NCBI GenBank assembly: GCA_007131165.1
Contig: SLRB01000164.1
Coordinates: 1 to 39,374 of the forward strand
Source: Bacteroidales bacterium
GTDB lineage: Bacteria > Bacteroidota > Bacteroidia > Bacteroidales > PUMT01
DNA: 39,374 nt
Direction: 5' to 3'
Part shown: positions 1 through 1,195 of the stretch, in pieces
Position numbering within the stretch: position 1 is the stretch's first letter
Layout of the letters: every line of letters begins with the position of its first letter
Position numbers and translations under genes: made by a program
Notes under the pieces: generated by a model
Told to the model about the DNA's origin: nothing
Databases searched by the model: none
What the model saw: only the letters and a program-made list of their open reading frames with translations

Positions 1-252
1 GATTGTCCACCATACTGCAAAACCGTTAATGAAAACTACGGATAGCTGCGAGAACAATGCCTGCGTGCAATGCCATCTGACAAAAAGGGTGCCCCTCCTG
101 TTGCCTATGAAAAAAAACAGCGTGGCCAGCATATTGATCACTGGAAGGGGCATACCTGCCATAAGCGCAATGAGAGACATCAGATAGCCGTTGGAAGCTT
201 TTTCGGTTTCGTGATCGAGAGGGGTGTAAGGGAATGACTTAATTGATATCAT
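1..252 (-). CDS. DUF4870-like membrane protein (5' part; runs off the window edge)
   Basis: Not in the ORF track. My translation from the ATG at 252 is MISIKSFPYTPLDHETEKASNGYLMSLIALMAGMPLPVINMLATLFFFIGNRRGTLFVRWHCTQALFSQLSVVFINGFAVWWTI, open to base 1. Hydrophobic helices plus an FVRWHxxQA motif are typical of DUF4870. The ATG overlaps the upstream TGA (ATGA). Confidence 0.75.
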   Translation of the reverse strand, partial: MISIKSFPYTPLDHETEKASNGYLMSLIALMAGMPLPVINMLATLFFFIGNRRGTLFVRWHCTQALFSQLSVVFINGFAVWWTI

Positions 253-662
253 AGGTATTTGTAAAAATTCCAGATCCAGTTTGCAACTACAAGCAATATT
301 GCAGGAATGGCAAGCCGCCTGGCGGCAAGCCGTTTTTCGGCATCAATATAAAAACGGTGAAATGTGCTTTTGCTGCTCAGCAGATCTCCGGCAATCCATA
401 ACGGAATGATGAGCATTATTGCTGCTAACAACAACCCGGCAGGATTACTGTACAGGGCAGCACCCACATCCCCGCCGATGAGCGACAATACCGAACCGGT
501 AGAACCACAAGAGGGACAGGGCATGCCGGTTAAATGCCTGAACGGGCATGCCCCTGCCCACTGACCATCGCCGGCCCAGGTGAAGTAATAGCTCACACCG
601 AGCCATATATAACCGGCCAGGCAGGCTAAAAAAACTGTTATGTAAAGTCTTTTCCTGCTCAC
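249..662 (-). CDS. DUF2752 domain membrane protein
   Basis: CPFRHLTGMPCPSCGSTG motif between transmembrane segments, YSNP motif and C-terminal NWIWN. GTG start. Confidence 0.85.
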   Translation of the reverse strand: MSRKRLYITVFLACLAGYIWLGVSYYFTWAGDGQWAGACPFRHLTGMPCPSCGSTGSVLSLIGGDVGAALYSNPAGLLLAAIMLIIPLWIAGDLLSSKSTFHRFYIDAEKRLAARRLAIPAILLVVANWIWNFYKYL

Positions 663-678
663 CCTTAAACTATTGTTT

Positions 679-1014
679 TTAAGTATATTGCTGCAGTTTT
701 TGAAGATTCTTTTCCTTTGTCGCTCCCATTATCAGGAACCAGTCTATTATGGTCCAGATACCAAGTCCGCCACAAGTAAGCAATTTACCGATGCCAAGCC
801 CTACATCCCCTATCACGAAACGGTCAACTCCCAGGTACCCGATAAGGATCGAGATTATCAGCAGCATTGTCGGGTTTTTAAAATCAAGCGACTGAATTAA
901 TGACCATTTACTCTCATCGGCTTTGAGAAGTTTTTCCCTTATCTGGGGAACCATATGGCTCTCAAAATTCTTGCCGTTCACCATAATGAACATGTCGACT
1001 TTGTTTTCTTCCAT
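679..1014 (-). CDS. TM2 domain-containing protein
   Basis: C-terminal KNPT..LLIISILIGYLGVDRFVIGDVGLGIGKLLTCGGLGIWTIIDWFLI is the TM2 signature (GxDRFxxG...G..KL.T.GG.GIW...D). Confidence 0.92.
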   Translation of the reverse strand: MEENKVDMFIMVNGKNFESHMVPQIREKLLKADESKWSLIQSLDFKNPTMLLIISILIGYLGVDRFVIGDVGLGIGKLLTCGGLGIWTIIDWFLIMGATKEKNLQKLQQYT

Positions 1015-1030
1015 ATCAGTATTTTTAAAT

Positions 1031-1095
1031 TGCCTACTCTTGTGGCTTTTCGGCGGCCGCCCCGTTTATTGCAATGGTTTCAGGACTCCAGCTTA
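1031..1095 (-). ncRNA. candidate cis-regulatory RNA; resembles a shortened ydaO/yuaA (c-di-AMP) riboswitch
   Basis: The transcript-strand sequence is UAAGCUGGAGUCCUGAAACCAUUGCAAUAAACGGGGCGGCCGCCGAAAAGCCACAAGAGUAGGCA, a GC-rich island in an AT-rich leader ending 16 nt before the TM2 ATG. Block order parallels ydaO. Recognised by eye only. Confidence 0.4.
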
Positions 1096-1195
1096 CTGAA
1101 AAAAAAGAAAACAAGTTAATTTTAATTTTTCAATCATGCAATTTTCTTTCCGGTTTTTACTCCGGAAGGCAATAACTGACAGTATCCCCGGGGTT

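Follow-up and report, generated by a model that had tools for sequence, protein, structure and literature searches.

On the minus strand of the 39,374-nt stretch of DNA analyzed here (hereafter called the window), the gene of a UbiE-type methyltransferase, which has its end at position 1196, is followed, on the same strand, by a short leader and then by the gene of a small membrane protein with a TM2 domain. A preliminary description regarded this leader as a new, miniature form of the ydaO/c-di-AMP riboswitch that could control the translation of envelope proteins. The locus raises the question of what this leader is, how it is folded, and what it may do for the genes that lie behind it.

Identity and extent of the leader

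When the whole window was scanned with Rfam 15, the only match at the gathering level was RF03081, the DUF805 RNA, at 1027-1096 of the minus strand. The score was 53.4 bits against a gathering cut-off of 51.1, the E-value was 4e-7, and the alignment covered model positions 1-68 of 68. The same match was obtained again, at E 3.6e-9, in a permissive scan (E<=10) of positions 900-1260 (361 nt), in which the four other matches were at chance level and far under their own cut-offs. RF03081 has 68 model positions, is typed as cis-regulatory in Rfam, and belongs to clan CL00115; at the locus, DUF805 outscored one further match from this clan. The element, whose minus-strand reading is AAGCUGGAGUCCUGAAACCAUUGCAAUAAACGGGGCGGCCGCCGAAAAGCCACAAGAGUAGGCA, scored 70.6 bits with a covariance model that we built from 24 relatives.

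The window copy had all the conserved blocks of DUF805. The features that define membership, namely hairpin P1 with its loop, the linker with the G-run, hairpin P2, the GAGUAGG tail, the strand, and the spacing to the start codon, were all present. The copy agreed with every DUF805 feature tested and with none of the c-di-AMP riboswitch features tested. The score for RF03081 exceeds the curated cut-off by only 2.3 bits, because P1 is disturbed in this lineage by a C/U mismatch or a UU bulge. We regard the membership of the element in the DUF805 family as almost certain. The element is an ordinary copy of a catalogued, already known mRNA leader of Bacteroidota, the DUF805 motif of about 68 nt. 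The explanation that we favor as a whole, with a probability of roughly 85%, is that this copy is folded into two hairpins and two pseudoknots and would act in cis on the TM2/DUF2752 operon.

The preliminary description had read the letters of the minus-strand leader exactly as they are, and the distance of 16 nt that it gave from the end of the element to the ATG is correct (GUAGGC ends at 1032, the end then assigned was 1031, and the TM2 ATG occupies 1014-1012). The extent of 1031-1095 has to be adjusted; the element is there, and it is slightly longer according to the RF03081 match. The RF03081 match and the placement bear out that a structured cis leader RNA lies on the TM2 strand directly ahead of the ATG. 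The description had also named a hit to an already described Rfam family as the finding that would remove the novelty. Since the Rfam comparison that it proposed, once run, returned the catalogued RF03081, that finding is now in hand and the element is not novel.

The first description of the DUF805 RNA motif is reportedly that in the supplement to Weinberg et al. 2017, NAR 45:10811. The available part of the main text of that paper (PMC5737381) contains 0 occurrences of DUF805, TM2, DUF2752, and Bacteroidetes. In the accessible part of the literature, no functional study of the DUF805 RNA was found, and the mentions of the RNA were limited to benchmarking and method papers. The features of the locus are listed in Table 1.

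Table 1. Leader, helices, and genes at the TM2 locus (positions are those of the window)
Feature	Positions	Strand	Basis or remarks
DUF805 RNA leader, whole element	1027..1096	-	RF03081, 53.4 bits; own model, 70.6 bits
Hairpin P1	1073..1092	-	Alignment to the Rfam consensus and family covariation
Hairpin P2	1044..1061	-	GGC 1061-1059 with GCC 1046-1044; loop GGCCGCCGAAAA, 1058-1047
Pseudoknot 1	1033..1053	-	P2-loop C1053 and C1052 with G1033 and G1034 of the invariant GAGUAGG tail (1039-1033)
Pseudoknot 2	1062..1084	-	P1-loop C1084 and C1083 with G1062 and G1063 of the G-run ACGGGG (1065-1060)
TM2-domain membrane protein, 111 aa, first gene behind the leader	679..1014	-	PF05154, E 4.4e-14
DUF2752 membrane protein, 137 aa, second gene	249..662	-	PF10825, E 2e-15
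Third ORF, broken off by the contig end	1..252	-	No Pfam family for the 84-aa piece

Hairpins and pseudoknots

The structure was analyzed in two sets of relatives. The covariance model built from 24 matches gave 109 matches in 92 sources, of which 108 are distinct, since one site was counted twice. A second set, collected independently, consisted of 87 matches from 100 of the 125 pattern-defined loci listed. The model to which both alignments were fitted includes P1 and P2 and so favors these two helices; the two pseudoknots lie outside the model.

In the window copy, the 5' strand of P1 is GCUGG (1092-1088), the loop is AGUCCUGAAA (1087-1078), and the 3' strand is CCAUU (1077-1073). The P1 typical of the family is GUGG/CCAC with the loop AGnCCAGAAA, and that of the window is CUGG/CCAU with one C/U mismatch, C1091/U1074. 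Alternatively, the GC at 1092-1091 can pair with the GC at 1072-1071 across a UU bulge. The stem of the window copy is UGG/CCA extended either by a G.U pair with the C/U mismatch or by GC/GC across the bulge. Among the 108 distinct sequences, changes on both sides were found in 5/5 pairs of P1, with 92.4% of the cells paired, and in 3/3 pairs of P2, with 98.1% paired. The P2 loop of the family ends in CCGAAAA, and the P2 loop of the window, GGCCGCCGAAAA, has this feature as well.

In the alignment of 108 distinct sequences, position 44, which lies in the aCCG of the P2 loop, and position 62, the first G of the tail GG, surfaced beside the P1 and P2 pairs as the strongest mutual information. 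This pair, which belongs to pseudoknot 1, was CG in 76 sequences, UG in 16, UA in 11, and other in 4. Its neighbor 43-63 was CG in 94, UA in 3, UG in 3, GC in 1, and other in 6. We also considered a pairing of CGG (33-35) with CCG (43-45), which was possible in 90-92% of the sequences; it was without covariation, A34 stood opposite C three times and opposite U twice, and the pairing of 43-44 with 62-63 was preferred.

Pseudoknot 2 connects the P1 loop with the G-run. The family feature AAACGGGG, which is an A-rich linker with a G-run of which the first two G pair with the CC of the P1 loop, occurs in the window as AUAAACGGGG. In the set of 87 sequences, this helix was 95.2% paired, and its pair 13-35 was CG in 55, UG in 7, UA in 6, and other in 3. 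In the first set of 108 sequences the helix was 93.7% paired and hardly varied. Seven sequences of the second set have a loop shortened to GAG--CAG, and each of them also has one G fewer in the G-run.

The preliminary description had placed a pseudoknot between UCCU and AAGA. The complementarity (U-A, C-G, a C/A mismatch, and U-A) does exist in the window sequence taken alone, and the CC of the loop is in fact a pseudoknot strand, but its partner is the G-run (G1063 and G1062) and not AAGA. The family does not keep the pairing of UCCU with AAGA; among the 108 relatives 34.8% of the cells were paired, without covariation, and, of about 105 sequences, 3 had a standard pair at 14-56 and 6 had one at 15-55.

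When the four helices were taken together, 94.5% of the cells were paired in the 108 distinct relatives, changes on both sides occurred in 12/12 pairs, and 0/500 shuffles reached the observed value. The slid controls in the same alignment were all far lower than the value observed for the aligned structure. The window copy and the copy of a genome of the same genus (G009), both of which have the TM2 arrangement, are too close to each other to provide independent covariation. The bases of the window copy allow all four helices. Energy folding of the single window sequence did not recover the consensus fold (MFE z = 0.23); such a failure would be expected for a small pseudoknotted RNA. Taken comprehensively, the alignments show that an RNA fold with two hairpins and two 2-bp pseudoknots is under selection in the family.

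Placement of the leaders and the genes behind them

Behind the leader of the window, the TM2 ATG lies 13 nt past the last DUF805 model position, and the A of the AUG is 19 nt downstream of G1033. Further along the operon, the stop codon of the DUF2752 gene shares the letters ATGA, at 249-252 of the minus strand, with the start codon of the third ORF, which suggests translational coupling. Between 600 and 1400 of the minus strand, no site resembling a terminator was detected, and a sigma-70 scan at the locus added nothing informative.

In G009, 65 of the 70 leader bases are identical, the leader stands ahead of a 95%-identical TM2 orthologue, and the gene order is the same (SulP, UbiE, leader, TM2, DUF2752). 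The gene after DUF2752 in G009 is a serpin-like lipoprotein instead. Among 20 genomes of the family, an exact TM2 orthologue was present in 2, one of which is the own genome. Conservation of the leader upstream of TM2 genes, which the preliminary description had proposed as a check, was limited to this one same-genus orthologue. TM2 was also rejected as a characteristic partner of DUF805, because no upstream match above 24 bits was found at 29 TM2-family loci in other genomes of the order. One locus (L103) has two strong DUF805 matches downstream of its TM2 gene.

Two further observations concern the flank of the element. The U-rich 5' flank at 1101-1116, ACUUGUUUUCUUUU, is complementary to codons 2-6 of TM2, GAAGAAAACAAAG (997-1011 of the minus strand). 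This pairing encloses the whole motif in a 156-nt fold with z = -2.2, in low-complexity sequence and in two close genomes only; in G009 a C-to-U change keeps one of the pairs as G.U, and the length of the U-run differs. In addition, a 14-codon ORF, MIEKLKLTCFLFFQ, lies at 1093-1137 of the minus strand, and its stop codon, TAA, falls within the first bases of the motif. This ORF is probably not a gene, since G009 has CTG in place of ATG and a T-run that differs in length by 4.

DUF805 RNAs are widespread among the relatives. Matches over the cut-off were found in 61 of 151 genomes that sample the same order evenly, with up to 14 matches per genome, and in 19 of 151 genomes of a sample of the phylum. 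In a set of 61 genomes (60 relatives and the own genome), 25 had a match at E<=0.01 and 18 had one over the cut-off; at the former threshold, the matches in one genome of this set numbered as many as 18, and one contig alone carried eight of these. The own genome of 3.4 Mb has a single DUF805 copy, which is that of the window. An exact-pattern scan detected the core pattern in at least 125 loci of named genome records. Among the 80 matches listed, 75 carry record names that we take to be Bacteroidota lineages, 2 are presumably Ignavibacteria, and 3 belong to what we take to be other phyla. Flavobacterium is among the names of records with the core pattern. Full-length DUF805 matches of 61.8, 65.7, and 84.0 bits with our own model were seen in records titled Enterobacter, Pseudomonas, and Rhizobiaceae MAG (L148, L157, and L176, respectively), and these reflect either assembly contamination or transfer. 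In several genomes the leaders form tandem clusters with one copy ahead of each small gene (G028:C350:8055-13259 and 36697-40043; G164:C302:2405-3721; G092:C223; G082:C21).

Of the 109 matches, 104 were followed by an ORF that could be called with a length of 35 aa or more, one gene being counted twice among the 104. In 90 of these 104 called genes the ATG was located 10-21 nt after the end of the model, with a mode of 14. In the family as a whole, the orientation with the gene and the spacing to the start codon were both strict.

The products of these genes were then compared by a crude hydropathy rule. An N-terminal hydrophobic segment was found in 88 of the 104 downstream products, and such a segment or a TM-like segment was found in 95. 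The corresponding values were 38% and 49% in 2072 crudely called ORFs of the own genome, and 42 of 78 among the other complete ORFs in the same loci. Both the hydropathy rule and the ORF calls behind this enrichment are crude, and the related genomes are non-independent samples. Even with these rough predictors, the bias of the DUF805 partners to exported and membrane proteins is large. The expectation that the family stands ahead of envelope-protein genes is upheld by the exported or membrane products in 95/104.

The partners belong to many unrelated Pfam families. Among them were OMP_b-brl with 6 and Por_Secre_tail with 5 of the 104 products, TRL and DUF6567 with 4 each, and DUF805, YccF, DUF975, and TM2 (the window and its same-genus twin) with 2 each. 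There was no family at E<=0.001 for 46 of the 104.

In this order, about 15 of the 108 DUF805 copies follow a conserved small ORF, the stop of which lies 19-37 nt ahead of the motif (L003:1398-1466 (+), L041:1399-1467 (+), L043:1409-1474 (+), L005:1601-1675 (-), L062:104-172 (+), L065:3154-3222 (-), and others). One class encodes a basic peptide of 22-25 aa, MGKFKKRH..QTREPP..FDSS, with an FDSS-like end in 9 copies; a second class, seen in 2 copies, encodes 14-15 aa ending in KG. The FDSS is kept although its serine is encoded by AGT in some copies and by TCA/TCG/TCT in others, and we therefore argue that the small ORF is coding. No NCBIfam family was found at E<=1 for 10 of these peptides. 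The small ORF was present in 4 of the 125 phylum-wide pattern loci, among the matches listed, and is absent from the window copy.

The ATG of the small ORF is situated inside a conserved sequence, GTTATGGGCAAG (L043, about 1340-1420; also L005, L041, L044, and L004). At L043, an inverted repeat of TAACGGTT with AACCGTTA spans about 40 nt ahead of the small ORF, and the conservation begins abruptly at GTTATG; from its sequence, this upstream boundary looks like that of an attC-type cassette. Another block, GGGCUGACCACCCAAuGUGACA, is located upstream of about 18 copies, about 25-45 nt before the motif (L044:1440-1500, L037, L039, L011, L076, L081, L092, and others). The GGGCTGA in this block contains the KG-stop of the short ORF class, and the conservation continues past the stop. 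No Rfam family was found for the block at E<=0.01. A fixed box TAnnTTTG, which is the Bacteroidota-type promoter box, was considered and rejected as an upstream companion of the motif, as the exact box occurred in 9 of 108 loci at scattered positions and at no constant distance.

Possible role of the leader and comparison with known RNAs

Since the ATG follows the model by 10-21 nt, there is no room for a terminator between them. The leader would act at translation initiation or on the fate of the mRNA rather than on transcription termination, and we consider it rather probable that it works in cis on translation or on the mRNA. To our knowledge, Bacteroidota are mostly without Shine-Dalgarno pairing and initiation led by it. 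The GGA of the tail is too distant from the AUG to serve as a Shine-Dalgarno sequence. The distance from the end of the double pseudoknot to the AUG is 19 nt, which would place this end at the upstream edge of the ribosome-loading region. The likeliest role of the leader would be cis control of translation initiation.

Outside the helices, the bases A28-A32, G45-A49, and G57-A61 (model numbering) are near-invariant and unpaired, and this suggests that a ligand or a protein recognizes them specifically. The A-rich linker, the GAAAA loop, and the GAGUA tail would be read by an effector, which could be a small ligand or a protein, and the effector would co-ordinate many unrelated envelope-protein genes.

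It is also conceivable that the DUF805 RNA senses nothing and is a constitutive module of the 5' UTR, which stabilizes the mRNA or boosts or insulates the translation of envelope genes, and which possibly moved with gene cassettes. The extreme diversity of the downstream genes, the tandem copies with one per gene (as in G028:C350 and G164:C302), the conserved small ORF ahead of about 15 of the 108 copies, and the folding of the window sequence, in which no alternative 'off' structure is evident, are all consistent with such a module. The 5' UTR of E. coli ompA, a structured stabilizer on an envelope mRNA, offers a precedent. In contrast, the near-invariant unpaired bases and the double pseudoknot exceed the needs of a stabilizing hairpin, and a signature of a small ORF or of a cassette is absent from most copies and from that of the window. 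We therefore think that a constitutive module is rather unlikely.

Returning to a leader that is read by an effector, we speculate that the DUF805 leaders could serve as a post-transcriptional label that Bacteroidota reserve for their exported and membrane proteins, in which the bound ligand or protein would report the state of the envelope or of secretion. We judge this speculation unlikely to hold. If it is true, dozens of unrelated envelope genes per genome would be co-ordinated, the TM2/DUF2752 operon would be under the same control, and, in part of the order, the basic peptide of 22-25 aa (MGKFKKRH...FDSS) might partner the leader or trigger translation. The strong link with exported and membrane proteins, the fixed place about 20 nt before the AUG, and the double-pseudoknot fold make the family a reasonable target for an effector search, and the pair-level map names the bases to mutate.

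A signal at the DNA level, such as a promoter, an operator, or a recombination site, would account for the constant position upstream of genes and for the inverted repeats and conserved blocks further upstream in some relatives, but it is very unlikely in view of the compensatory changes in four helices, two of them non-nested, the strict orientation with the gene, the spacing that is fixed to the start codon and not to a promoter box, and the rarity and scatter of exact TAnnTTTG (9/108).

The kinship with the ydaO/c-di-AMP riboswitch (RF00379) started from real likenesses. Both are cis leader RNAs with pseudoknots, and four short blocks stand in the same order, GAAACC, CGGGG, CCGAAAAGC, and GUAGGC in the window versus GGGAaCC, uGGGG, CCCGuCAGC, and GcAgGC in the RF00379 consensus. 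It is also true of riboswitches for second messengers that they regulate envelope genes of various kinds and are present in many copies. The c-di-AMP riboswitch, in contrast, is composed of many helices over 134 positions, with two pseudoknot pairings at long range, as against the 68 positions and two hairpins of DUF805, and the letters common to both have other roles in DUF805, where they belong to the 3' strand of P1, to the pseudoknot and P2, and to the loop and 3' strand of P2. RF00379 gave no match at E<=10 either in the 361 nt of 900-1260 or in the whole 3.4-Mb genome, whereas its true members in the same phylum, found in 2 of 61 genomes sampled (compared with 19 of 151 for DUF805 over the cut-off), score 84 and 98 bits over the 134 positions. 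Together with the failure of the UCCU/AAGA pairing described above, these results refute the reading as a miniature ydaO riboswitch without peripheral stems as far as homology is concerned, and we give it practically no chance. The motif in the window is catalogued and routine, and the ydaO reading need not be kept.

The DUF805 leader may work like preQ1-II and SAM-II, which are small riboswitches with an H-type pseudoknot that act on translation. The likeness, which is in working only, lies in the compact pseudoknot and the A-rich strands close upstream of the start codon, with no terminator. In the window, the 3' strand of the pseudoknot is about 19 nt from the AUG and no Shine-Dalgarno sequence is covered. 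Neither of the two Rfam families had a match at E<=10 in 900-1260.

Within the clan, DUF805b (RF02914, 35 positions) shares a core of 35 nt, which consists of P2 and the AGAGUAGGcA tail, and the tail of the window, ACAAGAGUAGGCA, agrees with the consensus letters of DUF805b. Hairpin P1 and the additional CGG in the G-run are missing from DUF805b. As the window copy possesses the two of them, DUF805 is the better member of the clan for it. The lack of P1 in DUF805b fits a role of P1 as a docking accessory.

Compared with a typical RF03081 RNA, the window copy is a low-scoring variant of its lineage, with the P1 mismatch or bulge, a change of A15 to U in the loop, and a P2 loop that is longer by one base. 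Its partner is TM2/DUF2752 in place of a DUF805 gene, although DUF805 genes themselves account for only 2/104 partners in the sample. In the same two hairpins, the G-run, the CCGAAAAGCC loop, the GAGUAGG tail, the position before the start codon, and the membrane protein downstream, the leader of the window and the DUF805 RNA are alike.
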